Below, in pieces: positions 9,130 through 47,068 of a DNA stretch of 64,000 bases. Under the pieces are notes generated by a model that was given only the letters and a program-made list of their open reading frames with translations, was not told the DNA's origin and made no database searches. Position numbers and translations under genes: made by a program. This stretch comes from Verrucomicrobiia bacterium (GTDB taxonomy: Bacteria; Omnitrophota; Omnitrophia; Omnitrophales; Aquincolibacteriaceae): assembly GCA_035495615.1 (NCBI GenBank), contig DATJFP010000026.1:15635-79634 (forward strand), written 5' to 3'. Position 1 is the stretch's first letter; every line of letters starts with the position of its first letter.

Positions 9130-9165
9130 AAACGGTCATTCCGTTGGACGGATGTTTTGTGAGGA

Positions 9166-9630: not shown

Positions 9631-9726
9631 CTGCTTCCCTACGGTTGCGGTGGAGAGTCCAAGTCGTTACGCAATAGCTAGTTATATTAGACAGTTTCCT
9701 CTCTTACGTCAAACGGAAACACACGG

Positions 9727-27793: not shown

Positions 27794-27969
27794 TTTTGTC
27801 CTGCGGGATGAGATTTCTACGCGATAGCGCCGTCCTTAACTCCTGTCCGAGTCGGCAAATGGAATCGCTTTTAGCGATAAAAAAAGAGCGTCCGGCCGCG
27901 AATAATAATGAGCCCGAAGCTGTTGCTATTGAATGTTTTGTTAGGTATGTTCTTTTCCAGGGGGTTTGC

Positions 27970-29067
27970 ATGGCAAGCAGCTTAAACCACGAAGGATTCC
28001 TCGAATACGCCAGCAAACGGATGATCCGGTACGCGCACAGCGAAAAATTCATGCGCTGGGTATGCCGCTACCTGATCCTCCATCTCCGCCCCACGCAGGT
28101 TTCGGTCGCGCTCTATGATGCCACGCTGCAATCCTTCTGCATCCAGGTTTCCGAAGGGCATCCGAAGGTTCCCTCGCGCCTGATCAGTCTAAACACAAAC
28201 AGCCCGCTGATCCAATGGTTTTTGAACCGCGGCGAGGCCAGCCACATCCGCCGTTCGCGCCGCGTCGTCACGTCGAGCTGCATGGCGCAAAAAGAAGGGC
28301 CGCGGGAACACGAAATTTACGAAGAGCTCGTCCGCCATCACGTCGAGGCCTGCGTCAGGATCGAGACGCGTGAGCGCCTTGCCGGCTATCTCCTCATCGG
28401 GCCGCGTGAAACCCAGCAGCCGTACAGCAAAGAGGACCTCACGTTTTTTCAGATCCTGGCCAACGACATCGGTATCGAAATCGAAAAGGAAGAATACCTT
28501 CATCATGCCCGCCACGATCCCATCACCGGACTGTATAACCGCGCCACGCTGCAGGAAACGTTGGGGGCCATTTTCGAAAAAGAACGGCACAACGACTTCG
28601 CCGCGGCCATGATCGACATCGACCATTTTAAGTCGGTCAATGACCGGTACGGCCATCTTGCCGGCGACCAGGTCATTCGCTGCGTGGCGGATTTCATCCG
28701 CTCCGGCATCCGCAAAACAGACACGGCCTTCCGCTACGGCGGCGAAGAGTTTCTGGTCTTATTCAAGAAGAACGCGAGAAATCCTGACCGCATCATCTCG
28801 GATGATGAATTTCAAAACGACATCATCCTCGCAGCCGACCGGCTTCGGCAAAAAGTGAACGCCCGCCCCGTGACGTGCCTTCAATACGAAATCCCCCTCA
28901 CCATAAGCATTGGATTGACATTTCTGACTCCCCAAACCCGCAGCACTGCGTCCCTGATTGCCGAAGCCGATCGCGCCCTTTATCAGGCCAAGAACGGCGG
29001 GAGAAACCGCGTGGTCGTATTCGCGGAAAGCGAGAGCCGGCAGCTTATTTCGAGAAGATCCCTTTGA
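27970..29067 (+). CDS. GAF-domain diguanylate cyclase (GGDEF)
   Basis: RYGGEEF motif with upstream DIDHFKSVNDRYGH. N-terminal GAF-like region. Start taken at MASSLNHEGF inside the longer ORF from 27796. Confidence 0.8.
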   Translation: MASSLNHEGFLEYASKRMIRYAHSEKFMRWVCRYLILHLRPTQVSVALYDATLQSFCIQVSEGHPKVPSRLISLNTNSPLIQWFLNRGEASHIRRSRRVVTSSCMAQKEGPREHEIYEELVRHHVEACVRIETRERLAGYLLIGPRETQQPYSKEDLTFFQILANDIGIEIEKEEYLHHARHDPITGLYNRATLQETLGAIFEKERHNDFAAAMIDIDHFKSVNDRYGHLAGDQVIRCVADFIRSGIRKTDTAFRYGGEEFLVLFKKNARNPDRIISDDEFQNDIILAADRLRQKVNARPVTCLQYEIPLTISIGLTFLTPQTRSTASLIAEADRALYQAKNGGRNRVVVFAESESRQLISRRSL

Positions 29068-31600
29068 GGCCGCGGGAATTGAGCGACGCGATGTCGGCCA
29101 GCGCGCGCGGCACGGAAAAGCCGCCGGGAAGGGCAATGTATTTCGGACGCCACTGCGGCCCGAACTTTTCTTTGTAATCGCGAAGGCCTTCGAAGTTGTA
29201 GAAATATTCGCCGCGCGAGAAAATGAAAGCGCCCAGCTTGTTCCACAACGGTGCGAACTCGCGGTTCTCGAGCCCCGCAAGAGGCGCCATGCCCACGTTG
29301 AACCACTGATAGCCCTGCTCTTTTCCCCAGAGGAAAAGATTCAGGAAAAGATAATCCATGGATCCGGCCGGCGCGAGATCCGGGTCATAGCGCATCAAGT
29401 CCACGGACAGTTCGCTTTTCTCCGCGCCCAGCATGACATTGGCAAACGCCACGGGCTTGCCTCCATACCGCATGACTGCCATGGGAAAATGACGCAGATA
29501 CGACACGTCGAAAAATCCGAGCGAGAAGCCTTTTTCCTTGGTGTTTTTCTTGGCGAGCCATGCGTCGGAAATCGTCTTCAGCTCCGCCGCGCGGCCGGGC
29601 ACCGCCTCTTTATCCACCCACTCGAAGGAAGCGCCCTCTTTTTCCATGCGCCGGAGGGTGTAGCGCATTTCTTTGCGCCCGCCGCCTTCCAGTGAAAACG
29701 CGGGAAGGAAAACGCGGCCTTCCTCACCCATCTTGATCAGGGCAAATCCCGCGTCGAGATAAAGCGGCAAATACTGCGGATTCACTTCGTAGAAAACGGG
29801 CATGCCGTCGTGACGGTCGACAAGCATGCGGAAAGACGTGATCAGGTCCAGCCAGGCATTGCTGTCACCAATCGGGTCGCCGAGCGACACCCAGCTCTTG
29901 CCCTGGACGCCGTACATGATGAACGCCAGGCCGTCCCGGCTGAAAAGAAAATTCTTATCGCCGCTCAGGGCGAGATAAGAGGTGGTATTGGACGAGCGCA
30001 CAATGATGTCGAGGGCGCGGGAAAGTTCTTCCGGTGAAGGCGGATGCACTTTGATCGTGGTCGTTCGCATGAGATTGGCGGCGGAAAGGATGCCGGCAAA
30101 GGCCATGACGCCTACCACGGCGCGCATGGAGCGCGCCGCATCCCCGCGCAGGCTGAAGTGCCACCAGAGGTCGCCTGAATAATTGACGTGCTTGAACGCA
30201 AAAAGCCCCAGCCATACGGACACACTGATGACGGTCAGGACCGAAAGAAGCCATGCCGGCGAAAGCGCTTCGCCGAAGAGCGACGCCTTCCGGTAAAAAA
30301 AGGGCCGGCTCGGAACGATCAGCAGGAACATGGCAAACAGGATCACGGCTTCTTCATAGTCAAAACCTTTCATCAGGGAAAACACCATGCCGAAGCCCAG
30401 AAGGATGAGCGCGAAATAATAAGCCGCATCGAGGCGCCGCTGGATGCCCCGCGCGAGGAATAAAAGCAGGACGCCCGCGAGGCTTCCGAGAAAATGCGAA
30501 AGTTCGATGGCCGGAAGAGGCAGGAAGCGCTCCAGCATGGCAAGACGGGAACCGACCGCGGGCGTGGATCCGGAAAGCAGCAGCACCGTGCCTGCAATGA
30601 ACGTGGTCACAGAAAGCAGCGGCGGCACGAACGGCGTCAGAATCTGATTGAAGGCCGCGCCGGCCTTGGCGTATTTCCGCAGATTCTTGAATTCGAGAAC
30701 GGCCAGAAACAGCAGCGACACGAAAAGCGGGAGAAGATAATAGATAAGCCGGTAATAAAGAAGGGAAACGAAAAGCTGGTCCGAAGGGACTCGGTCGGAG
30801 AGCGCGGCCAGAAGCGTCGCTTCGAAAACACCGAGGCCGCCGGGAACCTGGCTGACCATGCCCAGCAAATGCCCGGTGATGAAAAGCCCCACGAAGAAAA
30901 GATAGGACAGCCCATGTCCCTGCGGCAGCAAGACGTAAAGGACGGCCGCGGCCAGCAGCCAATCGGCAAGCGAAAAAAAAGCCTGGCCGAGAGCAAGCCG
31001 CCCTTCCGGCAAACGCAGCTCCCAGTCTTTGATCTTAAAGGAGCGGCGAACGAAGCCGCAGGCCAAAAGATAACTCAGGACTGCAGCGAGAAAGGCAATG
31101 CCCAGCATGCGCACCATTTCGGGACTCAGAAATTGCAGGCCCGGCAAAAGACGGCCGGGAGCGGTCACGAAAGAAAAACCGAGGAGCGCGATAAGGCCCA
31201 GAAAAAAACTCACGCTGTAAAACAGGATAACTTGGGCGGTTTCCAGCGCCGAGAGTCCCCACGTGGAGTACATGCGGTAGCGTACGGCAGCTCCGGAAAG
31301 CGCGACCGCGCCGAAATTATTTCCCAGCGCGCTGGCGATAAACGAGGCCGGAAAAATCTTGGCGTACTTCATGGGCTTGCGGATGTAGCGCAGACCCAGC
31401 CATTCGTAGGACGTCAGCGCCGCGTAATTGAAGGCCGTAAACAGCGCCGCCGCCAGCAGCGGACGCTTGGGGAAATCGGCAAAGTTATGCGTGACGTCGT
31501 TAAAGTGGTGGCCGCCAAGCTCGCGGTAAAGCACCCACAATCCCCCGATAAAAAAAACGAATCCGAGGGAATGAAAAACGCGAAGAAGGAATTTTTTCAT
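29045..31600 (-). CDS. mprF: bifunctional lysylphosphatidylglycerol flippase/synthetase (phosphatidylglycerol aminoacyltransferase)
   Basis: 851 aa. ~14 TM N-terminal flippase domain plus C-terminal synthase domain (DUF2156-like, FANVMLG...YDPDLAPAGSMDYLFLNLFLWGKEQGY). Confidence 0.85.
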   Translation of the reverse strand: MKKFLLRVFHSLGFVFFIGGLWVLYRELGGHHFNDVTHNFADFPKRPLLAAALFTAFNYAALTSYEWLGLRYIRKPMKYAKIFPASFIASALGNNFGAVALSGAAVRYRMYSTWGLSALETAQVILFYSVSFFLGLIALLGFSFVTAPGRLLPGLQFLSPEMVRMLGIAFLAAVLSYLLACGFVRRSFKIKDWELRLPEGRLALGQAFFSLADWLLAAAVLYVLLPQGHGLSYLFFVGLFITGHLLGMVSQVPGGLGVFEATLLAALSDRVPSDQLFVSLLYYRLIYYLLPLFVSLLFLAVLEFKNLRKYAKAGAAFNQILTPFVPPLLSVTTFIAGTVLLLSGSTPAVGSRLAMLERFLPLPAIELSHFLGSLAGVLLLFLARGIQRRLDAAYYFALILLGFGMVFSLMKGFDYEEAVILFAMFLLIVPSRPFFYRKASLFGEALSPAWLLSVLTVISVSVWLGLFAFKHVNYSGDLWWHFSLRGDAARSMRAVVGVMAFAGILSAANLMRTTTIKVHPPSPEELSRALDIIVRSSNTTSYLALSGDKNFLFSRDGLAFIMYGVQGKSWVSLGDPIGDSNAWLDLITSFRMLVDRHDGMPVFYEVNPQYLPLYLDAGFALIKMGEEGRVFLPAFSLEGGGRKEMRYTLRRMEKEGASFEWVDKEAVPGRAAELKTISDAWLAKKNTKEKGFSLGFFDVSYLRHFPMAVMRYGGKPVAFANVMLGAEKSELSVDLMRYDPDLAPAGSMDYLFLNLFLWGKEQGYQWFNVGMAPLAGLENREFAPLWNKLGAFIFSRGEYFYNFEGLRDYKEKFGPQWRPKYIALPGGFSVPRALADIASLNSRGLKGIFSK

Positions 31601-34871: not shown

Positions 34872-36491
34872 TTATCTCCCTTTCCCGACACTAGCCGGCT
34901 CGTTATAAACGTAATTGCTCTTCGGGCCGGGGCCGTTCTTGCGTGTAGACAGCGGTGTCTCTGAAAACTTGTCCAGCTTCACGCCCACATAACCCGGAAC
35001 GCCCATTTCGGGAATGTCCAAACCTTCGACTTCGTCATCCGGCCGGACACGCAGCCCGATCGTGACATCGATCGCCTTAAGCACAATGTAGCCGATGACG
35101 CCCACGTAAACCACGTTTGCAAGAACGCCGATGCAGGAAGCCACAAACTGACTGGGATCGCCATAAAAAAGTCCGCGAACCGTTCCCGCAACGCCGTTCC
35201 AGCCGTCGCCGTACGTTCCGTCGGCGAAAAGGCCCGTGGCCAGAATGCCCCATGCGCCGTTCACGCCATGAACCGCTACGGCGCCGACGGGATCATCGAT
35301 CTTAAGCACGCCTTCAAAGAAATACACGGCTTCGACGACGAGCAGGCCCGAAACCGCGCCGATGATGCAGGCGTTCACCGAATTCACGAAAGCGCAGGGC
35401 GCCGTGATGGCGACAAGGCCCGCGAGCATACCGTTGCACATCATGCTGGGATCCGGCTTCTTGGTGCGGACTAGCCACATCCAAAGCGTTGCGACGAGCG
35501 CGCCGGTCATGGAGGCCAGCATCGTGTTCGTAGCCACGACGGAAATACGCAGGTCCGTGCCCGCCAGCGTGGAGCCGGGATTAAATCCGAACCATCCGAA
35601 GGCGAGAATGAACGTGCCGACAATGGCCATCGGGATATTATGCCCGGGAATCGCGTTGGGAGTTCCGTCCGCATTGAACTTCCCGATCCTGGGGCCAATG
35701 AGTTTCGCGCCCACGAAAGCCAGGACGCCGCCCGTCAAATGCACCACCGAAGAGCCTGCGAAGTCCACATGCCCATGGCCCAGACCGAAATTCTGGCCGA
35801 GCATGGCCAGCCAGCCGCCGCCCCAGGTCCAGTTGCCATAAATCGGATAGATGATGCTGCCCACGAAAAGGCCGTACACGACAAACGCCGAAAATTTCCA
35901 ACGCTCGGCCATGGATCCCGTAGGAATCGTTGCGGTCGTGTCCATGAACACCATCTGGAAAAGGAACATCGCGAAGATCGCGGCGTCATAGGATTGTCCC
36001 GTCAGGAAAAAGCCTTTCATGCCGAAAAGGCCGAAACTTTTTCCGAAAAGGTGCAGCGTAAACTCATGGTTCAGGACATCCACGCCTCCCAGCGTGCCAA
36101 ACGCTCCGATGCCTCCGAACATTAACGCAAACCCGCACACGTAGAAACCCAGCATGCCCAAGGGATAGATCATGAAGTTCATGGACATCGTATGCGCCGC
36201 GTTTTTTGCGCGGCAAAGCCCGGTTTCCACCATGGCAAAACCCGCTTGCATGAACATCACGAGAAATCCGGTGATTAGCGTCCATACAAAGTTAATCGAG
36301 ACCTTGTTATGGCCCACTGCGGTCGCGAGTTCTTGGAGAGTCGGCGCGCCCGCCGTGGCAGCCGTAACGTCAGCAGCAGTTCCGGTCAGTGCGCCGCTCG
36401 GATCGGCATCCTTGGCGAAAGCCAGGACCGGCACTATCAGCCCGAAAGCGAATAGCCCTAGGAAAAAAAGACTCACTAATTTCTTTTGCAT
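34872..36491 (-). CDS. amtB: ammonium transporter
   Basis: 539 aa Amt/MEP family with cleavable signal peptide and 11 TM core. Immediately upstream of glnK on the same strand. Confidence 0.85.
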   Translation of the reverse strand: MQKKLVSLFFLGLFAFGLIVPVLAFAKDADPSGALTGTAADVTAATAGAPTLQELATAVGHNKVSINFVWTLITGFLVMFMQAGFAMVETGLCRAKNAAHTMSMNFMIYPLGMLGFYVCGFALMFGGIGAFGTLGGVDVLNHEFTLHLFGKSFGLFGMKGFFLTGQSYDAAIFAMFLFQMVFMDTTATIPTGSMAERWKFSAFVVYGLFVGSIIYPIYGNWTWGGGWLAMLGQNFGLGHGHVDFAGSSVVHLTGGVLAFVGAKLIGPRIGKFNADGTPNAIPGHNIPMAIVGTFILAFGWFGFNPGSTLAGTDLRISVVATNTMLASMTGALVATLWMWLVRTKKPDPSMMCNGMLAGLVAITAPCAFVNSVNACIIGAVSGLLVVEAVYFFEGVLKIDDPVGAVAVHGVNGAWGILATGLFADGTYGDGWNGVAGTVRGLFYGDPSQFVASCIGVLANVVYVGVIGYIVLKAIDVTIGLRVRPDDEVEGLDIPEMGVPGYVGVKLDKFSETPLSTRKNGPGPKSNYVYNEPASVGKGR

Positions 36492-36683: not shown

Positions 36684-37412
36684 TTAGGCGGGGACGGAAA
36701 TGGACGGAGGATCAATACGAAGACGATATCCCACGGCGGGCTCCGTGAGAATATAAATAGGACGCGCCGGGTCGGGCTCGAGTTTCTTGCGCAGGTTATA
36801 AATAACGACACGCAAAAGATGGTCCATCCGATGGACACTCTGATCATTATTCCAAACTTGTTTGTAGAGCTGCTCCGTTCTGACGATTTTACCCGCGCTC
36901 AAAACCAGGGCCTTCAGCACATCGTATTCCGTCGGCGTGAGATGCTGCGTGCGGTCCCCGACTTTGACGATACGCTGCTCGCCATCGAAAACAAGTTCGC
37001 CGGTCTTGAAAATCGGAGTTCCGCCTTTCGGCAGCCAGCGGCGCATGAGCGCTCGAACGCGGGCTAGAAACTCCGAAGGGCTGAAGGGCTTGGTGACATA
37101 GTCGTCGGCGCCTGCGTCAAGCGCCGCCACTTTATCCGCTTCGTCTCCGCGGACCGAGAGAATCATGATGGGTGTAGCCGCGCGCTGGCGTATCTCTCTG
37201 GCCACCTCGACTCCGCTGATATCGGGCAGTTTCAAATCCAGAATAATCGCATCAGGATGCGCTTTTACCGCGGCTTTCAAAGCCGCGCGGCCGTTAGCCG
37301 CTTCAAAGGTGCGGTACCCCTGGGATTGGAGCATTCTTTTGAGAACGCGCCTCAGCGGACGTTCGTCATCCACGATCAAAATACGCACCCCGTCTTTTTT
37401 AGGCCTAAGCAT
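36684..37412 (-). CDS. OmpR-family response regulator, KdpE-like (pair 1)
   Basis: Receiver domain (ILIVDDE...DLKLPD...DYVTKPF) plus winged-helix output (LTPTEYDVL, GYRL). Confidence 0.8.
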   Translation of the reverse strand: MLRPKKDGVRILIVDDERPLRRVLKRMLQSQGYRTFEAANGRAALKAAVKAHPDAIILDLKLPDISGVEVAREIRQRAATPIMILSVRGDEADKVAALDAGADDYVTKPFSPSEFLARVRALMRRWLPKGGTPIFKTGELVFDGEQRIVKVGDRTQHLTPTEYDVLKALVLSAGKIVRTEQLYKQVWNNDQSVHRMDHLLRVVIYNLRKKLEPDPARPIYILTEPAVGYRLRIDPPSISVPA

Positions 37413-38541
37413 GGGGCTTCTCGATGCAAAAAGGCAATTCCACAATCATTTTCGTCCCCTTTTCCGGCAGATTTTCGGCCCAGATTTTTCCTTGGTGCGC
37501 CTCAACAATTCCTTGGCAAATCGAGAGGCCGAGACCTGTACCCGGAATTTTCTGCGTTCGTTCACCGCGGTAGAACTTATCAAAGATACGATGCAATTCC
37601 CGTTCCGGAATGCCCGGGCCCTCGTCAGAAATTTCAATACGGACGCTTTGCATCGAGGTTTTGATCTCGAGCAAAACCAAAGAACCCCTGGGCGAATACT
37701 TCAGGGCATTGTCGATCACATTGACTAAGACTTTCAGCATCAGGTCGTAGTCGACGCAGGCTTCCGGGAGCTCATCCGGAAGAAGGACGCGCACACGATA
37801 TCCTTCCTCCCCCCGGGATAACTGCTGCAATGCCACTCCGATGAGATCGCTTAAGTCGCATGGTTTCCGGGTCAGCTCTAAAATGCCTCCCTCGACCTTG
37901 GTCATGTCCAATAAATTTTCAACGAGCTGACTGAGTCTCCCCGCCTCCGCGTTGGCTGTCGTAATGAGCTGCCGGCGGGAGGATTCATCCAGGTCCATGT
38001 TGTGGTGCATCAGATTCCCCAGGGCCGCAGTGATCGAGGACAACGGCGTTTTTAGATCATGAGAGATCGAGTTCAACAAAGTTGAATACAGTTTCTCCTT
38101 CTCCCGCAAAAGCTCCATCTGCTGAGTTTTCATGAGGCTGCGTCGGAGGCGCGTCGTCAAAGTGCTGATCGTGATTCCTACAATCAAGAATCCGGCCAGG
38201 GTGACGAAATCGTGCTGACTGAATGTGGCGAAGCTGAATTGCGGCGGGATGAAAAGGTAATCAAAAGCCAGCACGCTGGCGATCGAAGAGGCGATTGCGG
38301 GGCCACGGCCCCATTTGAGCGCAATAATTACGACCCCTAAGAGATAAAAAATAATGAGGTCGGTTGTGATCAGAAAGGCTTTGGCATAGGCAATCCAACC
38401 CGCAAGAAAAGCCGCTGCCACCAACATCAGGCTCAGGATATATGGCATGACGCGATCGGTTTTTTTTCCACCCCACTTCATGGTCATGAGAGCCCCTACG
38501 GATCGATAATTGTATCGAACGTCAGGGAAAGAAAATATCAA
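37405..38541 (-). CDS. sensor histidine kinase, KdpD C-terminal type (4-TM + HisKA + HATPase only)
   Basis: TM block LAFDYLFIPPQFSFATFSQHDFVTLAGFLIVG matches the KdpD membrane domain. LLNSISHDLKTPL H-box. No N-terminal KdpD/Usp domain and no GAF linker. Confidence 0.8.
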   Translation of the reverse strand: MIFSFPDVRYNYRSVGALMTMKWGGKKTDRVMPYILSLMLVAAAFLAGWIAYAKAFLITTDLIIFYLLGVVIIALKWGRGPAIASSIASVLAFDYLFIPPQFSFATFSQHDFVTLAGFLIVGITISTLTTRLRRSLMKTQQMELLREKEKLYSTLLNSISHDLKTPLSSITAALGNLMHHNMDLDESSRRQLITTANAEAGRLSQLVENLLDMTKVEGGILELTRKPCDLSDLIGVALQQLSRGEEGYRVRVLLPDELPEACVDYDLMLKVLVNVIDNALKYSPRGSLVLLEIKTSMQSVRIEISDEGPGIPERELHRIFDKFYRGERTQKIPGTGLGLSICQGIVEAHQGKIWAENLPEKGTKMIVELPFCIEKPHA

Positions 38542-38654: not shown

Positions 38655-39728
38655 ATGCAGAGACAAGACTCGCCGATCAAATATCATTTTATCTGGCACG
38701 GTTATGCCCAGAGCCTTCTCATGGTGGTTCTGGTCACGCTTGGCGGGGAACTACTCAAGCGCACGATCGAGCCCATCAACCTTATCATGTTCTATCTTTT
38801 GGCCGTGATCGTCGCGGGCATCCGCTGGGGCCACGGCCCCGCTGTCCTGACTTCCGTTCTGAGCGTGCTTGCCTTTGATTTTTTTCTCATCCCTCCCTAT
38901 CTGACTTTCGGCGTCGAAGATTTCCAGTACGTCTTTACCTTCGCGGGTTTTCTCATTGTAGGTCTGATCACAAGCGAACTGATGACAAAAACAAAGGAGC
39001 AGGCGCGCAAAGCGCGGCAATTGGAACTGCTTCGAGCGACAAAAAAACTGCAGACAGCGCTCCTCAATTCAGTCTCGCACGACTTGCGCACGCCGCTGGC
39101 TTCGATCATCGGATCCATCAGCATGCTCCTGCAAGACGAGCCTTCCCTCGCCGAAGAAACCATAAAGGGGCTGCTCCGGGACGCCTATGGGGAATCGCTG
39201 CGCTTGAATCGCTTGGTCGGGAACCTCCTCGACATGACGCGGCTTGAAGCCGGCGCTCTGAATCTTTCTTTTAAATCCTGCGATTTAAGAGACGTGCTCG
39301 GCGTGGCTTTGCAGGAGCTCGCCGACAAATTGGAGCAGCGCCGAATTAAAACCCAGATCCCTCACGACCTCCCGGAAATCAGCGCGGACTTTTCTTTGAT
39401 CATGAAGGTGCTCGTGAATTTAATCGATAATGCGGCGAAATATTCGTCTGAGGACACACCGATCCGCATTGCCGCCAAAACGCAGGGCGACCGGATTAAA
39501 ATTGAAATCATGGACGAGGGAATTGGAATTGCCCCCAAAGACTTGAAACCTATCTTCGACAAATTTTACCGCGCTTCCCATCCGTCGACGGTCGAGGGTC
39601 TCGGGCTTGGGCTCTCGATAGCGAAAGGAATCGTGGAGGCGCATCATGGCGAAATCTGGGCGGAAAGCGGCGCGGGAAAAGGGACGACATTCGTCGTGCT
39701 TTTGCCTTACTCCAAGGAGACCGCATGA
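38655..39728 (+). CDS. sensor histidine kinase, KdpD C-terminal type (pair 2, paralog of 37405-38541)
   Basis: LAFDFFLIPPYLTFGVEDFQYVFTFAGFLIVG TM block. LLNSVSHDLRTPL H-box. About 50% identical to the divergent paralog. Confidence 0.8.
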   Translation: MQRQDSPIKYHFIWHGYAQSLLMVVLVTLGGELLKRTIEPINLIMFYLLAVIVAGIRWGHGPAVLTSVLSVLAFDFFLIPPYLTFGVEDFQYVFTFAGFLIVGLITSELMTKTKEQARKARQLELLRATKKLQTALLNSVSHDLRTPLASIIGSISMLLQDEPSLAEETIKGLLRDAYGESLRLNRLVGNLLDMTRLEAGALNLSFKSCDLRDVLGVALQELADKLEQRRIKTQIPHDLPEISADFSLIMKVLVNLIDNAAKYSSEDTPIRIAAKTQGDRIKIEIMDEGIGIAPKDLKPIFDKFYRASHPSTVEGLGLGLSIAKGIVEAHHGEIWAESGAGKGTTFVVLLPYSKETA

Positions 39729-40426
39729 AGGAGCAGCACGCCTTGCGCGCGTTGATTGTCGATGACGAGAAGGCCTTGCGCCGTTTTCTCAAGACCGCAC
39801 TGTCGTCCCACGGCTATCAAGTGTTCGAAGCCGGCAACGGCCTAGAGGCCCTCGAAGAATCCGTATCCTGCCATCCCGACGTCATCATCATCGACCTGGG
39901 CCTGCCCGACAAGGACGGCATCGAGGTCACGCGCGAGATCCGCCGGCGCACGAAGACGCCCATCATCATTTTGTCGGTGCGCGACCGCGAAGAGGACAAA
40001 ATCCAGGCGCTCGACGCGGGCGCGGACGACTACCTCACCAAGCCTTTCAGCGCAGGCGAATTGATGGCGCGTCTGCGGGCCGTCATCCGCCGCCTAGTTC
40101 CGCAAAACGAAACCACATTTTTTAAAGCCGGCAAATTAGCGATCGATATCGGCAAGCACACGGTGGAATTAAACGGCCGCGCCCTCCAGCTCTCGCCGAC
40201 CGAATTCGACATCGTTAAAGTGCTGGTCATGAACGCCGGAAAAGTCGTGACTCAAAAGCAGATCTTGAAAGAAGTCTGGAACAAAACCGAAGAAATGGAA
40301 GGGGCTTCCCATCTTCTCCGCGTCACCATCAGCAATCTGCGCAACAAAATCGAGCCCAATCCCGACCGTCCCACCTATCTTCTCACCGAGCCGGGCGTGG
40401 GATACCGCCTTCATACCGAAGATTGA
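39725..40426 (+). CDS. OmpR-family response regulator, KdpE-like (pair 2)
   Basis: ALIVDDEKALRRFL...DLGLPDKDG...DYLTKPF receiver. LSPTEFDIVKVL...GVGYRL winged helix. ATGA overlap with upstream kinase. Confidence 0.85.
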   Translation: MKEQHALRALIVDDEKALRRFLKTALSSHGYQVFEAGNGLEALEESVSCHPDVIIIDLGLPDKDGIEVTREIRRRTKTPIIILSVRDREEDKIQALDAGADDYLTKPFSAGELMARLRAVIRRLVPQNETTFFKAGKLAIDIGKHTVELNGRALQLSPTEFDIVKVLVMNAGKVVTQKQILKEVWNKTEEMEGASHLLRVTISNLRNKIEPNPDRPTYLLTEPGVGYRLHTED

Positions 40427-40459
40427 TTTGAAAGATTTTCCGCTTACCCATTTCCTCTT

Positions 40460-40504
40460 TTGACTCTCTTTTGACTTGGCCTTCCTTTGCCTCACGGCTA
40501 TCTT
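40460..40504 (+). promoter_or_regulatory. activator-type promoter: 11-bp-phased direct repeat TTGACTC-N4-TTGACTT, then TATCTT -10 element 22 nt downstream, no canonical -35
   Basis: Same architecture with identical spacings recurs at 43682-43726, upstream of the second riboswitch. Confidence 0.35.
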
Positions 40505-40514
40505 TTGCATAGAT

Positions 40515-40695
40515 CGAACAAGCCGAATCCGGATGACGGATCGGGGGACCCAGAGAAGGCTCCGGAGCTCGATGCTTCGGGGCGATAAGCAGCTCGAAAC
40601 TTGGTGTTTTTAGCTATCGGGGCGAATCACTGCAAAGTGAAAGGTTTCCACTCGACCTTAGCCCGACAGCTAACCCCGTAGGCGAAACGGAGAGA
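40515..40695 (+). promoter_or_regulatory. c-di-AMP riboswitch (ydaO/kimA class) in leader of ptsN-like/kimA operon
   Basis: GAAUCCGGAUGACGGAUCGGGGGACCCAG ... GGGGCGAAUC ... GUUUCCACUC ... AGCCCGACAGCUAACCCCGUAGGCGAAACGGAGAG. Conserved blocks remembered from the ydaO motif (GAAUC, ACGG..GGGGGACCCA, GGGGxGAAUC, CCCGAAGG-GCAA-like 3' end). Confidence 0.75.
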
Positions 40696-40796
40696 ACTGT
40701 GCACCGCATTTTCGAACCGCGCTTTTCAATCCTTTCCGTTTCCCCTGGTTTCACCGCCGAAGCGTTCCGCGCAGACGGGCTTTCAAGGAGGACGCC

Positions 40797-41381
40797 ATGG
40801 TTTCACTCATCGTGTTAGGAGGAGCAAAAATGCTGTCGTTTCGAAAGCAAAGGCAGGAAACATCATTAAGGCGCGGGCAGGCCGCCGCGAATCAGAGCTT
40901 AGGCCAAGCGGCGTTAAAAATTTCCGACTACCTGACGTCCGAACAGATTTGTTTTTTCCCCGAGGGAACAAACGCGCTCAGGGTATTCTCGGATTTGATA
41001 GGCACTCTCTCGATACCAAACCGGGAGTTCGCTTTGGAAGCCGTTCTTCGCAGGGAACAAGTCGGCGGGACGATCGTGGCTCCGGGAATCGCGCTTCCCC
41101 ATGCTCGGATTGACGGCACGGACCGGTTGCATTCGGCTCTCGCTCTTTGCCCAAGCGGTATCAAGCTCAGCGAAGACGAACCGGCGATCCGCCTGCTCCT
41201 CCTTTTTGTCAGCCCTTTTACCGAACTGAAAAACCACTTACGCTTTCTGGCCGCGGCAGCAGCTTTATTTCAAGACGAAATGCTTTGCGGCGACATGATC
41301 GCGCTGAAGTCGAGCGATGCCATTTTGGAAAAACTAAAACACAAAGAAATGAAAACCCATGCCGAACATTCCACAAAATAA
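40797..41381 (+). CDS. PTS EIIA type-2 protein, EIIA(Ntr)/PtsN-like
   Basis: ALEAVLRREQVGGTIVAPGIALPHARIDG...LLLLFVSPFTELKNHLRFL aligns with E. coli PtsN around the phosphorylatable His (GIAIPHG). AGGAGG RBS 7 nt upstream. Confidence 0.75.
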   Translation: MVSLIVLGGAKMLSFRKQRQETSLRRGQAAANQSLGQAALKISDYLTSEQICFFPEGTNALRVFSDLIGTLSIPNREFALEAVLRREQVGGTIVAPGIALPHARIDGTDRLHSALALCPSGIKLSEDEPAIRLLLLFVSPFTELKNHLRFLAAAAALFQDEMLCGDMIALKSSDAILEKLKHKEMKTHAEHSTK

Positions 41382-43389
41382 GTCGGTCCCTCGAAACGTC
41401 GTCATTGTGACGACCGCCATGCTGAGCTTTATCAGTTTCTGGCGGGCCGCCGCGATCGTGCTTTGCGATATTGCCTCCACGGTTTATTACATCGGCGGCA
41501 TTGCCGAGCATGCCATCGGAAAAGCCGCTCCGTGGTTTATTTTGGGCGTGATGCTCTTTTCCTACACGGTACGCGCCATTTACATCGAGTCTTGCGGCAT
41601 GTTTGTCCGCGGCGGCGTATACCGCGTCGTCAAGGAGGCTATGGGAGGAACGCTCGCCAAACTTTCCGTCTCGGCCCTGATGTTTGACTATGTCTTGACC
41701 GGGCCCATCAGCGCGGTTTCGGCAGGCCAATACATGGTCGGCCTTTTGAACACGACGTTTCCACACTTCGGCTTACCGTGGCATTTTCGCGCTGATATTT
41801 TTTCCGTTTTGTTCGCCGTCGCCGTCACGCTCTATTTCTGGTGGGAAAACGTTAAAGGCATTCCCGAGTCGAGCGACAAAGCCCTCAAAATCATGATCGC
41901 CACGACGATCATGGGCATCACCATGATCATTTGGAGCGTGACGACGCTCCTCGTGCGAGGCATCCACTGGCCCCCTTTCACTCCCGTCTTTAACGAAGAC
42001 TCGCTGGGCTGGCTGTATTCTCTGAAAGACAAGATCAAACCTCTGGGCGTCCTCGGCCTCACCATCGCCTTCGGCCATTCGCTGCTCGCCATGTCCGGCG
42101 AAGAATCCCTTGCCCAGGTCTACCGGGAAATCAAAGCGCCCAAGCTCAAGAATCTCGAAAAAGCAGCCTTCATCGTCTTTCTCTACAGCATGCTGTTGAC
42201 CACGCTGGGAAGTTTTTTCGCGATCATGATCATTCCCGATTCCGTGCGCATGAGCCAATACTCCGACAATCTGATAAGCGGCCTTGCGATGTATTTCGTC
42301 GGCCCGCTCCAACTCAGACTCCTTTATCAAGCCTTCGTGGTCTTCGTCGGATTTTTAATTCTTGCCGGCGCGGTGAATACGTCCATTATCGGGTCGAACG
42401 GGGTCCTCAATCGGCTGGGAGAAGACGGCATCCTGCCCGAGTTCCTCAGAAAGCCTCATGCCCGTTTCGGCACGTCTTCGCGGCTCATCAATATGACAGT
42501 AGGACTTCAACTGCTGACGATCGTACTCTGCCGGGGGAATATTTACGTGCTCGGTGAGGCCTATGCCTTCGGCGTCATCTGGAGCTTCGTATTCAAGGCC
42601 CTGGCCGTCCTCATCCTCCGCTATAAAGACAAGATGCCGCGCGAATGGAAAGTGCCCTTGAATATCAAAATCAAAGGCCTGGAATTCCCGGTCGGAATCG
42701 CCGCTATTTTTCTGATCCTTCTCCTTACCGCCAGCGCGAACCTTGTGACGAAAAAGGTCGCCACAATTTCCGGCTCCCTTTTTGCCCTTGTCTTTTTTGC
42801 CGTATTTGTGGCTTCGGAAAAGATCAACAAGCGGAAGCATCATGCCCTTCATGGCCAGCATGACATTCACGCGGGCCACATCGACCGGGTCAATCTGAAT
42901 GAGATCGAAAATCTCAGCCCCGAAAGTTGCGGCTGCACGAAACCCCGAAGGGTCATTGTTGCCGTACGAGGCCCGCACAGCCTCAGCCATCTCGAAAAAA
43001 CGCTCCATCAGATCCATCCGGAAGACACCGATGTCGTGGTGCTGACTTCGAAAGTCGGCAAGGGCTACCAGTTGGAAGGCGATTTGAGCCGTGTCGCGCC
43101 GGAGGAAGAAAAGCTCTTTACCCGCGTGATTGAAGTGGCAGAGAAAGTCGGCCGAACCGTCATCCTGCTGTCGGTCCCGACGAACGATCCTTACTACGTG
43201 ATGGCGCGCATCGCGCACGAGTTAAAAGCGCAGGAACTCGTGGTCGGAAAATCTGAAAAATTTTCCCCCGAAGTTCAGATGGAGGAAATCGCGATTGCCT
43301 GGGGCGCCGTGACGCCGCCGCGCCAGCATGTGCCGCCTCTGATGATTCGGATTCTGTGGGATGGGAAAGAAATGACCGAAATGTTCTAA
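41359..43389 (+). CDS. kimA: KimA-family K+ importer (APC superfamily) with C-terminal cytoplasmic Usp-like domain
   Basis: 676 aa, 12-TM APC fold. SGEESLAQV region corresponds to KimA SGVEAISN. C-terminal RRVIVAVRGPHSLSHLEK...VVVLTS...VILLSVP resembles the B. subtilis KimA cytoplasmic domain. Preceded by ydaO-class riboswitch. Confidence 0.75.
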   Translation: MPNIPQNKSVPRNVVIVTTAMLSFISFWRAAAIVLCDIASTVYYIGGIAEHAIGKAAPWFILGVMLFSYTVRAIYIESCGMFVRGGVYRVVKEAMGGTLAKLSVSALMFDYVLTGPISAVSAGQYMVGLLNTTFPHFGLPWHFRADIFSVLFAVAVTLYFWWENVKGIPESSDKALKIMIATTIMGITMIIWSVTTLLVRGIHWPPFTPVFNEDSLGWLYSLKDKIKPLGVLGLTIAFGHSLLAMSGEESLAQVYREIKAPKLKNLEKAAFIVFLYSMLLTTLGSFFAIMIIPDSVRMSQYSDNLISGLAMYFVGPLQLRLLYQAFVVFVGFLILAGAVNTSIIGSNGVLNRLGEDGILPEFLRKPHARFGTSSRLINMTVGLQLLTIVLCRGNIYVLGEAYAFGVIWSFVFKALAVLILRYKDKMPREWKVPLNIKIKGLEFPVGIAAIFLILLLTASANLVTKKVATISGSLFALVFFAVFVASEKINKRKHHALHGQHDIHAGHIDRVNLNEIENLSPESCGCTKPRRVIVAVRGPHSLSHLEKTLHQIHPEDTDVVVLTSKVGKGYQLEGDLSRVAPEEEKLFTRVIEVAEKVGRTVILLSVPTNDPYYVMARIAHELKAQELVVGKSEKFSPEVQMEEIAIAWGAVTPPRQHVPPLMIRILWDGKEMTEMF

Positions 43390-43400
43390 GCGAGAAAAGG

Positions 43401-43685
43401 ATGGATTTCTTTTTAAAATTCACTCTCATCTCTTATGCCTCGATTTTCTTTTTCACACTGGGATTGCGCCTGGCTGTTTCCAGCGAATTGGACTTGCGGG
43501 TCATCCAACTTTTTCTTATTTTTGCCGCTGTCTCGCTTCCTTTGTCTCTGACCTTCAAATCCCAGCCTTTGTATAGCCGTTTTCTGATGTCCCTGACCTG
43601 CACCTCCCTCATTCTGACCGGTTTCCGTTTCGGCAGGAAAATAAAGCGTTTGGGTGAAGAAAATCCCCTCAAACGTCATTTTTGA
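43401..43685 (+). CDS. small 3-TM membrane protein ending ...GFRFGRKIKRLG (paralog of 45622-45891)
   Basis: 94 aa. RBS GAAAAGG. Shares FFLxFxLxSYAxIFFFxxGL...FKSxPL...GFRFGRKI with the ORF following the second kimA. Confidence 0.5.
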   Translation: MDFFLKFTLISYASIFFFTLGLRLAVSSELDLRVIQLFLIFAAVSLPLSLTFKSQPLYSRFLMSLTCTSLILTGFRFGRKIKRLGEENPLKRHF

Positions 43686-43736
43686 CTCGTTTTTGACTCG
43701 TCCAATGCCCTCTCCCCGAGTATTTTGTCACGATTA

Positions 43737-43880
43737 ACGACAAGCCGAATCCCGACAGGGATCGGGGGACCCGATAAAGCGGCTCTCAAAGTTTTGAGCC
43801 ATGGGCGAATCCGCCGGAGCGCGGAGAGGTTTCCACTCAACCTCAGCCCGTCAGCTAACCCCGAAGGCGCAACGGAGAGG
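43737..43880 (+). promoter_or_regulatory. c-di-AMP riboswitch (ydaO/kimA class), second copy, abutting the kimA2 start codon
   Basis: ACAAGCCGAAUCCCGACAGGGAUCGGGGGACCCGA ... GGGCGAAUCC ... GUUUCCACUC ... AGCCCGUCAGCUAACCCCGAAGGCGCAACGGAGAGG. Co-linear with the first copy. The conserved 3' AACGGAGAGG contains the RBS for ATG at 43885. Confidence 0.75.
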
Positions 43881-43884
43881 TGTT

Positions 43885-45612
43885 ATGTCTTTGATGCTCA
43901 AAAAAGTCGATCGCCCGCGCGAATTGAAGTGGTATCAGGCGGGCGCCATGCTGTACGGCGATTGGGGAACCAGCAAGGCCTATGTGCTTGGCATCGCCTT
44001 CGCTCTTGCCGGCCACGCTTCCTGGTTTTTCCTCGGCCTCATGTCCGCGCTTACGGCCCTCATCGGCGTCTGCTACATGGTGATTTGCCGCGTGTATCCG
44101 GACGGCGGCGGCGTTTATTCTTCCGTGAAGCATCGCCACCGCCTGCTCGCGGTGATCGGCGCGTTTCTTTTGATCGCGGATTACGTGATTACCGCGTCGC
44201 TCAGCACGCTCGACGCCTTCCATTATTTCAACGCGCCGCATCCGGAAATCTGGGCCGTGGCCACGATCCTCGTCATCGGCGCCATCAACTGGCTCGGGCC
44301 CAGCAAATCCAGCACGATCGCGTCTTACATCGCCGTCGTGGCCTCGGCGGGCGCCCTGATTCTTTTCGCGGCAACCGTTCCCTCGCTCTCCCATGTGCAT
44401 CTGACCTGGCCCGGCAGCGACTGGCCCAAAAATTGGACGGTTTTCGTCGGCATCGTGCTCGCGCTTTCCGGCGTGGAAGCCATTGCCAACATGACGGGCA
44501 TCATGGAAGAGCCCGTCGAAAAAACATCCAAGCGCGCGATCTGGCCCGTGCTCCTGGAAGTTTCCGTGCTGACCTTTCTGCTTGGCATTGCCATGAATGC
44601 CATCCCGAACCTCAAAGACCATACCGAAGACATGCTCCGCGTCCTGGCCACGCATTATATCGGGCCTTGGTACGGCGCCTTCATCTCGCTCGCGTTCGGC
44701 TTCCTGCTGCTTTCGGCGACCAACACCGCCATCGGCGACCTGGTCAGCATCCAGTTTTTGATGGCCAAAGACCGCGAGCTGCCCGAAGCTTTCTCAAAGC
44801 TAAACCGCTTTGGCATGCCGGGCCTTGCGCTGATCATCGCCACGGCGATCCCCGCGGGCGTTTTAATCTTCGAGCACGATCTGGTTAAACTCGCGGCACT
44901 CTATGCCATCGGCGTGATCGGTGCCATCACGATCAATCTCGGCGCCTGCGCGACCAACTTCAAGATCCCGCTGAGCCGGAAGGAACGCATCCTCCTCGGC
45001 ATCGGCGCGGTCATCCTTTTTTTTATTGAATTGACGATCGCCTTCGAAAAGCACCACGCCCTGATTTTCGCGCTCACGGTCCTCGCGGTCGGATTGTCGC
45101 TGCGCTATGCCGCCAAGACGTTCCTGCCGATTCCGGTGCCGGCGCTTGCGCCCACGGTCAATCTGCTCACCGTTTCCGAAGCCAGAGAAATAGCGCCGCT
45201 TTACAAAAGCTCGTCGCTTGTCGCGATCCGCAGCTTTAATCCCGCGGTGCTCGACGAAGCCGCGCTGCGCGTGAAGGCCCTCAAGGAAAACGCGGTTTAT
45301 TTGAGCTACATCGAGGAAACTCCCACCGTGGCGGAATTGCCGGATGAAATCGAACCGTCCTCTCACTCCCTCGAAGTCCTGGGAGAGGCTCAGAAGGCCA
45401 TGGAGGAACGCGGGGTCACCGGCATCCCGGTCTGGCAGATCGGCGATGATCCCGGCCGCATGATCGCCAAAGCCGCGGCCGAACTTGGAGTCAATACGGT
45501 CATGATCGGGACGACGAGGCGCAGCGCGCTGGTCAACCTTCTCCGCGGCGACGTGCTGCGAACGCTCGCCCGTCATTTACCCAGAGAATGCCGCCTGGTG
45601 ATCAGCGGCTAG
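43885..45612 (+). CDS. kimA: KimA-family K+ importer, second paralog
   Basis: CYMVICRVYPDGGGVYSSVKH matches KimA YRQIIYAYPQGGGAYIVSKE. LALSGVEAIANMTG matches SGVEAISN. C-terminal Usp-like domain. Start moved from ORF-track 43801 to 43885 to clear the riboswitch. Confidence 0.8.
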   Translation: MSLMLKKVDRPRELKWYQAGAMLYGDWGTSKAYVLGIAFALAGHASWFFLGLMSALTALIGVCYMVICRVYPDGGGVYSSVKHRHRLLAVIGAFLLIADYVITASLSTLDAFHYFNAPHPEIWAVATILVIGAINWLGPSKSSTIASYIAVVASAGALILFAATVPSLSHVHLTWPGSDWPKNWTVFVGIVLALSGVEAIANMTGIMEEPVEKTSKRAIWPVLLEVSVLTFLLGIAMNAIPNLKDHTEDMLRVLATHYIGPWYGAFISLAFGFLLLSATNTAIGDLVSIQFLMAKDRELPEAFSKLNRFGMPGLALIIATAIPAGVLIFEHDLVKLAALYAIGVIGAITINLGACATNFKIPLSRKERILLGIGAVILFFIELTIAFEKHHALIFALTVLAVGLSLRYAAKTFLPIPVPALAPTVNLLTVSEAREIAPLYKSSSLVAIRSFNPAVLDEAALRVKALKENAVYLSYIEETPTVAELPDEIEPSSHSLEVLGEAQKAMEERGVTGIPVWQIGDDPGRMIAKAAAELGVNTVMIGTTRRSALVNLLRGDVLRTLARHLPRECRLVISG

Positions 45613-45621
45613 AGGTTCGAA

Positions 45622-45891
45622 ATGCCGGTTTCGAATATCGCTTTCTTCCTGAGGTTTGGGCTCACCTCGTATGCCGCCATTTTCTTCTTTGCCGCGGGGC
45701 TCGGGTTTGCCTTGTCTTATGCCGGCAGCCTGAAACACACGGATTTCGGCCTGCTTTTTTTCTTCATGGCCGCGGCCCTGTGTTTCAGTTTCAAGTCCGA
45801 ACCCCTTCAAGGCCGCCTGATCATCGCCGCCATCTGGGCCTCGATCGTTTGGGCCGGCTTCCGCTTCGGCCGGAAGATCCGGATGCGCTGA
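45622..45891 (+). CDS. small 3-TM membrane protein ending ...GFRFGRKIRMR (paralog of 43401-43685)
   Basis: 89 aa. RBS AGAGG. Conserved blocks shared with 43401-43685. Confidence 0.5.
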   Translation: MPVSNIAFFLRFGLTSYAAIFFFAAGLGFALSYAGSLKHTDFGLLFFFMAAALCFSFKSEPLQGRLIIAAIWASIVWAGFRFGRKIRMR

Positions 45892-46045: not shown

Positions 46046-47068
46046 ATGTCGACAAACGATCAGCCCTCAACTGCGCCCGCGGGCAAAAAACCCAAGATCA
46101 ACGCCCGCTTTCTCAGCCTGGGCAATTTGCTTCTGCCCGTCCTTCTGGTCATCATCGCGCTTCACTGGGGAGACGGCCGGGTTTTTGCCGAGCTGCTGCT
46201 GAAGATCAAGCCCCAATGGCTTGTCCTGGCCGCCCTCTGCCAGATCGGGACTTACCTCTGCGTAACCATGATCTGGCGCACGGTGTTCCGCCGCTGCGGC
46301 ATCCCCATCCGCTCTTATCAATTGTTTGCGCTCAGCATTGCCAAGCTTTTCTTCGACCAGACCCTGCCTTCCTTCGGCGTGAGCGGCAGCGTCATGGCCA
46401 TGCGCGGGTTCATCCGCCGGCAAAGCTCCAAGGGCGCGGCCGCCGCGGCGGTCATCATCAATACCACGAGCCGCTACCTGCCCTACGTGCTGCTGTTCAC
46501 GGCGGCCCTGGCCATCCTCTGGAAACACCACATGCTCAGCAAGCCGCTGGAATACACGGCGGCTCTTTTCATCGCAGTCATCGTCATGCTCATGGCCGCG
46601 ATCCCCGCGCTCGTGCAGCTGGCCATCAATCATAAAACACCGTCCTGGGTGCACCGGTTTGGCTGGCTCGAGAAGGTCCTGAAAACCTTGCGCGAGATCC
46701 CGGTCGAGATCATTGGGGACTGGCGCCTGTGGCTTGTGGCGTGCCTTGCGAACGCCTGCATTTTTCTGCTGGATTCGACGACGCTTTGGAGTCTGTTGTC
46801 GTCCCTCGGCATCGGGACCCATCCCTGGTTCCACGCCTACGTCAGCGACATGGTGTCGTCCGTCGTGACCGACCTGGCCATGGTGCCGGGAAAAATCGGG
46901 GTTTTCGAAGGAAGCTCCGTCACCATGCTGCGGCTCTTCAAATATCCGCTCGAAGAAGCCGTGGCCGCGACGCTCCTTTTCCGCGGCTTCACCTACTGGC
47001 TGCCCATGATCCCGGGATTTATTATCACCCGCCGCGAGCTCGGACAGCACCCTCACGAATCCCGCTGA
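46046..47068 (+). CDS. flippase-like domain membrane protein (LPG_synthase_TM / UPF0104 family), second stand-alone copy
   Basis: 340 aa polytopic. Same family pattern as 9727-10731 and the MprF N-terminal domain. Confidence 0.65.
   Translation: MSTNDQPSTAPAGKKPKINARFLSLGNLLLPVLLVIIALHWGDGRVFAELLLKIKPQWLVLAALCQIGTYLCVTMIWRTVFRRCGIPIRSYQLFALSIAKLFFDQTLPSFGVSGSVMAMRGFIRRQSSKGAAAAAVIINTTSRYLPYVLLFTAALAILWKHHMLSKPLEYTAALFIAVIVMLMAAIPALVQLAINHKTPSWVHRFGWLEKVLKTLREIPVEIIGDWRLWLVACLANACIFLLDSTTLWSLLSSLGIGTHPWFHAYVSDMVSSVVTDLAMVPGKIGVFEGSSVTMLRLFKYPLEEAVAATLLFRGFTYWLPMIPGFIITRRELGQHPHESR

Follow-up and report, generated by a model that had tools for sequence, protein, structure and literature searches.

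A PtsN-like EIIA gene encoded with a remotely KimA-like transporter behind a c-di-AMP riboswitch in an uncultured bacterium

Why would a gene for an EIIA-type protein of the phosphotransferase system (PTS) stand behind a cyclic di-AMP (c-di-AMP) riboswitch and overlap the gene of a transporter, and what would its product do there? The question is raised by an open reading frame (ORF) at positions 40797-41381 (forward strand) of a 64,000-nt stretch of contig DATJFP010000026.1 (Verrucomicrobiia bacterium, assembly GCA_035495615.1), here called the window. Related loci are labeled L001 to L134, and P-numbers designate relative proteins recovered by profile search. Considering the protein, its transporter partner and the recurrence of the pair in other loci, we lean towards the view that the gene codes for a regulatory subunit of the EIIA-Ntr type, possibly switchable by phosphorylation and dedicated to a KimA-like importer that couples K+ uptake to protons.

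The EIIA-like protein and its transporter partner

The product has 194 amino acids (aa), in which a PTS_EIIA_2 domain (Pfam PF00359, E 5.4e-13, 49.6 bits against a cut-off of 27) comes after an N-terminal extension of ~42 aa that is basic. Its best match by sequence among solved structures is the EIIA-Ntr of E. coli (1A6J, E 1.9e-9), and this alignment reproduced the pairing of GIALPHAR (residues 97-104) with GIAIPHGK given in the initial annotation, with the phospho-His position at His102 (codon 41100-41102). Arg86, His102, and His147 align with Arg57, His73, and His120 of E. coli PtsN and are unchanged in 14 family members that are 27-55% identical to the window protein. Loss of the histidine in a careful alignment, combined with absence of EI-Ntr/NPr genes, had been named beforehand as what would refute the proposal; the residue is instead invariant in these relatives. 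An AlphaFold model obtained with 10 relatives as input (predicted local distance difference test [pLDDT], 83) has a confident EIIA domain, while the first ~40 residues are modeled as a low-confidence basic helix (7 K/R versus 1 D/E). The six best fold matches of this model in the Protein Data Bank (PDB) are all EIIA-Ntr proteins, from Neisseria, E. coli, and Burkholderia (target-normalised TM-score 0.81-0.82, root mean square deviation 2.2-2.8 A), and cytoplasmic domains of band 3/SLC4 proteins also appear among the matches. The Pfam domain, the fold, and the kept phospho-His bear out the description of the protein as EIIA(Ntr)/PtsN-like. The start at 40797, which has AAGGAGG just 5' of it, is favored over the in-frame ATG at 40830 by the N-terminal sequence MVSLIVLGG, kept in L007 and L008 with third-position changes (1/0/6 differences by codon position between the window and L008), and the EIIA of L008 lacks the second Met, which is consistent with a start at 40797 and not at 40830.

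A true PtsN equivalog, however, it is not. The protein falls below both NCBIfam equivalog cut-offs (TIGR01419, 42.4 bits versus 138.7; NF008145, 38.3 versus 221), and its gene neighbors are a kinase/regulator pair and a transporter, not the rpoN cluster; none of the genes of the rpoN-hpf-ptsN-rapZ-ptsO cluster was found among the ~60 window ORFs scanned against Pfam (all but a few of a greedy non-overlapping set with a minimum length of 80 aa). The source annotation, a sugar-PTS EIIA of the fructose/mannitol class, was rejected as well, because no partner EIIB/EIIC genes or domains were found in the window or in related loci.

The next gene, T1 (41359-43389, forward strand), starts 23 nt within the 3' end of the EIIA ORF (shared positions 41359-41381), as had been proposed, and no separate Shine-Dalgarno sequence is evident for it. 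It codes for a 676-aa transporter of the amino acid-polyamine-organocation (APC) superfamily, with a LeuT fold of 12 transmembrane (TM) segments and a C-terminal alpha/beta cytosolic domain (Pfam AA_permease_2, E 3.8e-50). The name kimA, applied to this gene in the initial annotation, had to be given up in its ordinary sense, since phmmer found no match between T1 and KimA (6S3K) even at E<=10. Because a sequence search of PDB chains with T1 and with its paralog T2 (43885-45612, forward strand, 575 aa) also gave no KimA match, the link to KimA rests on searching by fold, comparing profiles, and mapping residues. The three best PDB matches of the AlphaFold model of T1 (pLDDT, 82.6) are the KimA structures 8B70, 8B71, and 6S3K, at E 2e-16 to 1e-13 and over the full length, membrane and cytosolic parts included. 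Next come the NCC/NKCC cation-chloride cotransporters (3e-13 and weaker), over which the margin of KimA in this model-based search appears modest, and then amino-acid transporters. In hhalign, the profile of T1 (54 homologs) aligned with KimA over 306 columns with 94.8% probability (E 5e-8), and identity in the structural alignment is 16%.

The residue mapping concerned the K+-coordinating residues described for KimA (PMC10284832; bioRxiv 10.1101/2023.07.05.547876). KimA D36, Y43, D117, T121, S125, T230, E233, and Y377 correspond to D37, Y44, D110, T114, S118, S246, E249, and Y402 of T1. These columns are invariant in a joint alignment of T1, T2, two KimA homologs, and B. subtilis KimA, bar the change of T230 to S246, and all eight residues are invariant in the 54 T1 homologs. 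The c-di-AMP loop of KimA (H579-N580-Q581-S582; PMC10284832) is present as HNQT in the KimA homologs of L050 and L054, and no HNQ was found in the C-terminal domains of T1 or T2. T2 is 24% identical to T1 (E 5e-14), has the K+-site residues in common with it, and ends in a Usp domain (PF00582, E 2.6e-8), with which the T1 profile aligns at only 37% probability in hhalign. On these comparisons T1 belongs to an APC clade of its own, very large and well conserved, with only a remote likeness to KimA. Its search returned >8000 matches; those listed are 55-79% identical, and the few named ones belong to Omnitrophota, Elusimicrobia, and Deltaproteobacteria.

The pairing of EIIA and transporter genes is not peculiar to the window. 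The EIIA gene stands directly 5' of a T1 ortholog in L001, L003-6, L007, L008, L009/10, L053, L057, and L011/L055, whose EIIA proteins are relatives at tblastn E<=1e-31, and also in L132 and L134. With the window this makes about 12 independent loci, in which the two ORFs overlap by as much as 23 nt or are up to 3 nt apart. The junction ATGCCTAA was found in five loci, and the tight EIIA/transporter overlap noticed at the outset has its counterpart in a stop/start junction kept in every related locus. A distant branch of the EIIA family (~179 aa, its few named members from Elusimicrobia) is paired with T1 by an 11-nt overlap in L132 and L134, and for 11 further EIIA matches of this branch the longest contig is identical in size to that of T1 homologs. 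In L050 and L054, an EIIA of the same clade directly follows a true KimA homolog (6S3K, E 2e-58), and the L050 protein, a KimA partner, is 57% identical to that of L011, a T1 partner. The second-tier matches (tblastn E > 1e-15; L012-L049 and L059-L129), in whose vicinity there is no gene resembling T1 or T2, were set aside as ordinary PtsN/EIIA. In L011, which comes from an Elusimicrobia metagenome-assembled genome (MAG), the EIIA-T1 pair is directly followed by a gene for a 634-aa APC permease with a C-terminal P-II domain (7767-9671); P-II-like proteins include c-di-AMP receptors.

Fusion proteins join EIIA domains of this clade to similar partners. When 1.84 billion representatives were searched exhaustively with a profile, there were 29 matches at E<=1e-30 and 3107 at E<=1e-10; fusions were sought among the best 150 matches, and ten were tested for domains. 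Six of these ten combine Na_H_Exchanger with two EIIA domains. Other architectures are Na_H_Exchanger plus TrkA_N plus EIIA (a Kef-like antiporter), the KdpD N-terminal sensor plus EIIA (P0358), and DUF4118 plus GAF plus EIIA (P0260), in which the EIIA module stands where a kinase would have its transmitter. P0260 shares 47% identity with the membrane domain of the window kinase at 38655-39728 and 44% with the L050 EIIA, uniting in one chain two components that are neighbors in the window. The phospho-His is kept in all five fusion proteins read (P0268, P0280, P0377, P0358, and P0260). Therefore, this EIIA clade has repeatedly been attached to monovalent-cation transporters and K+-sensor modules. 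P0274 and P0278 are further EIIA fusion proteins near this family.

The third gene of the operon, sm1 (43401-43685, forward strand; 94 aa from ATG 43401), codes for a small conserved membrane protein without a match to any Pfam or NCBIfam family. It is 43% identical to its paralog sm2 (45622-45891, forward strand), and homologs adjoin T1 genes in L003 (3179-3433), L130 (8045-8305), L001, L057, and L058. The small protein may be an accessory subunit of T1-type transporters. Small membrane proteins of ~85-95 aa go with these transporters with or without an EIIA gene.

Two-component genes, promoter box, and riboswitch

Directly 5' of the EIIA operon, with its box and riboswitch, is the gene of a KdpE-like response regulator of the OmpR family (39725-40426, forward strand), preceded by that of a short KdpD-like histidine kinase (38655-39728, forward strand). 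A second KdpE-like regulator (36684-37445) and KdpD-like kinase (37405-38541) form a divergent pair on the reverse strand. The KdpD-like kinases that had been noticed beside the EIIA gene are thus part of two kinase/regulator pairs directly upstream. KdpD (C-terminal part only) is the best NCBIfam model of both kinases and KdpE that of both regulators, in all cases below the cut-offs (224 bits versus 325 for the regulator at 39725-40426). Pfam assigns the window kinases DUF4118-HisKA-HATPase_c only, the KdpD N-terminal sensor (PF02702) and Usp being absent, and the kinase at 38655-39728 is also without GAF. Regulators 65-81% identical to the one at 39725-40426 occupy the same position in L001-L010, L053, and L057. 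We found no kdpFABC in the window, and in L001 kdpABC-kdpDE adjoins the cassette. The second pair is followed by an ammonium transporter gene on the reverse strand (34872-36491; Amt, 539 aa, with N- and C-terminal extensions), so that genes for K+-type regulators and for NH4+ uptake are contiguous between 34872 and 38541.

A tandem direct repeat, CTCTTTTGACT twice (40455-40476, forward strand), with the core TTTGAC-N5-TTTGAC and a period of 11 bp, is located 51 nt before the first riboswitch aptamer. The T2 operon has a second tandem TTTTTGACT box, CATTTTTGACT CGTTTTTGACT (43677-43698, forward strand), also 51 nt before its aptamer, and these are the only two exact matches to the core in the 64 kb. 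When one mismatch is allowed the number of matches is 3 (0.36 expected), which none of 100 shuffles attained. The box is kept in every related locus with a KdpE-like regulator, including L130, which has no riboswitch, some loci having an 11-nt TTGAT variant, and it is absent at loci without such a regulator. Direct repeats are the typical layout of OmpR-family sites. Because of this layout and of the co-occurrence with the regulator, the box is a candidate operator of the KdpE-like regulator and would also be part of the promoter of the EIIA operon; it looks like a stand-in for the -35 element, as in PhoB-type activated promoters. Both operons also have TAT(C/T)TT 22 nt downstream of the second TTGACT, with the aptamer beginning ~7 nt further on.

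The c-di-AMP riboswitch proposed to precede the EIIA gene was recovered by Rfam on the same strand (40511-40699, forward), as an aptamer of the ydaO class that covers the full model RF00379 (1-134) with 75.1 bits (gathering score 38; E 1.3e-15). A second aptamer (43733-43884, forward strand; RF00379, 76.3 bits, E 6e-16) precedes T2. The first aptamer has an insertion of ~57 nt (40552-40608) at a position that holds 27 nt in the second and 6 in the Rfam consensus. An RF00379 element, conserved in 8 related EIIA loci, is also found upstream of the EIIA gene in L001, L003-L010, L053, and L057, and there is none at the EIIA-transporter pairs of L011/L055, L132, and L134. The riboswitch is therefore no constant partner of the pair. 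The layers of control are modular: kinase and regulator come alone in L130, the riboswitch alone in L131, and EIIA alone in L011, L132, and L134, while the window and its closest relatives have all of them.

In every locus the 3' tail of the aptamer (GGAGAG or GAGAGG) is followed 4-9 nt on by a start codon. In the second operon this is the ATG of the transporter itself (43885), for which the tail GGAGAGG acts as Shine-Dalgarno sequence, and in L003 and L009 it is the ATG of EIIA. In the window, L001, L007, L008, L053, L057, and L131, a short leader ORF begins with it. The candidate leader ORF of the window (40699-40818, forward strand; GTG start, 39 codons) begins 4 nt after the GGAGAG tail, and its stop codon, TAG at 40816-40818, is 19 nt past ATG 40797 and within the Shine-Dalgarno sequence of the in-frame ATG 40830. 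A scan of 40300-41500 gave no intrinsic terminators and no sigma-70 promoters. Besides, the leader at 40695-40850 (156 nt) folds worse than shuffled sequences (z +1.9) and has no stable structure, by which a hairpin-type expression platform is ruled out. The start codon 4 nt after the GGAGAG tail, together with the lack of a terminator, therefore suggests translational control, in which the riboswitch would gate translation of the leader peptide rather than that of the main gene.

The leader peptides of L001 (7843-7914), L053 (760-831), L057 (5853-5924), and L008 (117-200), encoded directly after the aptamer, read MK.IS.LYP.I..PSDPPP. Their codon differences fall mostly in third positions (for example, 1/0/7 between L001 and L057), and therefore the peptide itself is under selection. 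Judged from sequence, the case for a leader peptide is strong in these four loci and weak for the window's own ORF, which starts with GTG and has little peptide similarity. The peptide bears a polyproline motif of the type that causes stalling relieved by elongation factor P (EF-P). The leaders contain more C than G, a weak hint at a Rho site, with Rho-dependent polarity as a possible helper.

Proposed mode of action and competing explanations

In the operon the candidate KdpE-type operator is followed by the c-di-AMP riboswitch, the short leader ORF, EIIA, T1, and the small membrane protein. Of the mode of action set out here, the identity of the domains, the conserved active-site residues, the riboswitch, the conserved pairing and junction of the genes, the box common to both operons, and the fusions are observed, and we infer direct binding, phosphorylation, whether the effect is activation or inhibition, transport of K+, and the identity of the regulator at the box. 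Transcription of the operon is probably activated by the short two-component system beside it, which is KdpD/KdpE-like. The aptamer would be a translational OFF switch, with its 3' tail as the ribosome-binding site of the next start codon, and at high c-di-AMP, when the cell is replete with K+, translation of the leader would be blocked and the genes behind it silenced via the chain of coupled ORFs. Translational coupling of the EIIA and T1 genes would lead to both proteins being made together. The EIIA protein could then bind a cytosolic portion of T1, and perhaps the KdpD-like kinases as well, through an interface that includes the His102 loop or lies close to it. A relay of the nitrogen-PTS type, if the organism has one, would switch this binding by phosphorylating His102, and K+ uptake would respond to carbon/nitrogen status in addition to K+ and c-di-AMP. 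The closest mechanistic precedent is the K+/H+ antiporter YcgO, whose cytosolic domain is bound by unphosphorylated PtsN, with His73 in the interface and H73E abolishing binding (bioRxiv 10.64898/2026.08.14.744764). The initial annotation had envisaged a three-way link of c-di-AMP, PTS-Ntr, and two-component control. This idea gains from the candidate KdpE-type operator shared by both riboswitches and from the fusions to KdpD and antiporter modules; its phosphorelay half is something that we infer.

A bolder version can be offered only tentatively. In uncultured bacteria annotated as Verrucomicrobiae and Elusimicrobia, a phosphorylatable EIIA-Ntr-type protein might be a detachable gate of KimA-type K+ importers. 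Three independent inputs to one operon would then set K+ uptake: the promoter would answer to a truncated KdpD/E system, a translational riboswitch with leader peptide to c-di-AMP, and the protein to its phosphorylation by the PTS.

Several observations weigh against a dedicated regulatory subunit of a K+ importer. K+ as the substrate of T1 is read from conserved residues and context, and Pfam and the source annotations speak of an amino-acid or APC permease. The T2 operon has the same upstream box and riboswitch and no EIIA gene. Many members of the T1 family, such as those of L130 and L131, are likewise without an EIIA gene, and therefore the transporter does not need EIIA, while the EIIA gene of L133 is an orphan with no transporter nearby. 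The leader has neither terminator nor stable structure, and the riboswitch is presumed to reach genes 98 nt downstream. Finally, no EI-Ntr, NPr/HPr, or HprK was found among the ~60 scanned window ORFs or in the flanks of related loci, a scan that an HPr/NPr of ~85-90 aa could escape.

The KdpD/KdpE-like pairs directly upstream would also fit an EIIA that acts mainly on the adjacent KdpD-like kinases, as PtsN of E. coli does on KdpD, and tunes transcription of the K+ operons without gating the transporter, its location beside T1 reflecting co-regulation only. So would the fusions to a KdpD sensor (P0358) and to DUF4118-GAF (P0260, with its 47% identity to the membrane domain of the window kinase), the DUF4118 kinase that is also found near L050, and the activation of KdpD by PtsN, which a citation within PMC13104625 gives as established. 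We nevertheless hold this explanation to be unlikely. EIIA-T1 pairs persist without a nearby kinase or regulator in L011, L132, and L134, no feature is better conserved than the stop/start junction with the transporter, and the commonest fusions are to transporters (Na_H_Exchanger in 6 of the 10 tested). The two modes of action are, however, not mutually exclusive, and the kinases could be a further target of the regulatory subunit proposed here.

The absence of PTS genes among the window ORFs scanned and the flanks fetched raises another explanation, which we regard as quite unlikely, namely that EIIA is independent of the PTS, stays unphosphorylated at all times, and serves the transporter only as a structural or ligand-binding module, the histidine being kept for the interface and not for phosphotransfer. 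PTS-Ntr has been described mainly in Proteobacteria (PMC13104625), the fold matches of the EIIA model include the band 3/SLC4 cytoplasmic domains, and His73 is an interface residue in the YcgO complex. However, Arg86, His102, and His147 are invariant in stand-alone members with identities as low as 27% (and up to 55%), and the phospho-His is kept in the fusions read. An invariant set resembling a catalytic triad, together with the kept histidine, is therefore what is expected if phosphotransfer is retained. Moreover, the absence of PTS genes holds for the scanned window ORFs and the flanks fetched.

Very improbable, finally, is a downstream permease for amino acids or osmolytes, with EIIA linking nitrogen status to amino-acid uptake and the riboswitch giving osmotic control: it has on its side the Pfam assignment AA_permease_2, the source names "amino acid transporter" and "APC family permease," the ammonium transporter gene beside the locus, and the P-II-fused APC permease after T1 in L011, but the K+-coordinating residues of KimA are invariant or changed from T to S across T1, T2, and KimA, KimA structures are the best full-length fold matches, TM1 of T1 has D37/Y44 in place of the G(S/T)G motif that amino-acid APC transporters carry there, and the KdpD/E-like control, the kdpABC genes nearby in L001, and an EIIA partner in common with true KimA all point to K+.

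Comparison with known systems and other genes of the window

Literature searches for an arrangement of EIIA, KimA-like transporter, and riboswitch found no description of it. What is new here is that the known link between the nitrogen PTS and K+ homeostasis is met in uncultured non-proteobacterial bacteria and with a KimA-like importer. The window protein has the fold, the phospho-His loop, and the theme of K+ homeostasis in common with E. coli PtsN, which targets KdpD, TrkA, and, by direct binding of its unphosphorylated form, YcgO (bioRxiv 10.64898/2026.08.14.744764; PMC11808508 for YcgO). It differs in falling below the equivalog cut-offs, in its basic N-terminal extension of ~42 aa, and in the lack of an rpoN operon around its gene. 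It is also encoded together with its presumed target, an APC KimA-like importer, and would be made only when the c-di-AMP riboswitch allows. The arrangement recalls the proteobacterial PtsN paralog that is encoded in a K+ uptake operon and works with KdpD/E; that operon, however, codes for a P-type ATPase and has no riboswitch, in contrast to the secondary KimA-like transporter and the overlapping junction found here. The hosts are different too, Proteobacteria in one case and a Verrucomicrobiae MAG and Elusimicrobia-type metagenomic bacteria in the other.

In B. subtilis, kimA (ydaO) codes for a K+/H+ symporter that is controlled by a c-di-AMP riboswitch and itself binds c-di-AMP (PMC6994465, PMC10284832). 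The leader riboswitch, the LeuT-fold membrane part with a cytosolic domain, and the K+-coordinating residues are common to both systems. T1, however, lacks the HNQ(S/T) loop, has only 16% identity to KimA, and is accompanied by the EIIA and small membrane protein genes. The window riboswitch ends right beside a start codon and lacks a terminator, as would fit translational control. Bacillus thuringiensis has a c-di-AMP riboswitch upstream of kdp, standing in for the missing KdpDE (PMC6488665). There too, c-di-AMP acts through RNA on an operon for K+ uptake of high affinity that is linked with regulation of the Kdp type, whereas in the window a KdpD/E-like pair, the riboswitch, and EIIA come together. 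The cytoplasmic domain of SLC4/band 3 proteins is an EIIA-type fold that serves as the cytosolic regulatory part of a transporter, as proposed for the window protein, but it is very distant, fused, eukaryotic, and without a phospho-His.

What is known of K+ control by PtsN comes almost wholly from Proteobacteria, in which PtsN regulates globally and its gene is remote from most of its targets. In the window, the regulator is hard-wired to its likely target, by an overlapping gene here and by fusions in relatives, and would offer a clean and testable regulator/transporter pair. The link between PTS and K+ would thereby extend to other phyla and to KimA-type importers, and it would share one operon with c-di-AMP and KdpD/E-type control, two systems usually studied apart. 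The locus also draws attention to a very large, unstudied clade of KimA-like transporters now annotated as amino-acid permeases. If the protein were indeed a gate of such importers, this would be the first convergence of PTS and c-di-AMP signaling on one transporter, and the EIIA domain would represent a wider "K+ module" suited to combination with importers, antiporters, and KdpD-type sensors alike.

Other genes of the window concern lipid modification and a second nucleotide signal. There is one full copy of an MprF-like lysyl-phosphatidylglycerol synthase gene and two stand-alone paralogs of its flippase domain (9727-10731, 29045-31600, and 46046-47068), one of the latter directly following the second transporter operon. 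Genes for cyclic di-GMP (c-di-GMP) signaling are dispersed over the window, coding for two 423-aa GGDEF proteins of like layout (533-1804 and 27796-29067, the second also with a GAF_3 match) and for a STAS-PilZ protein (11326-12066).

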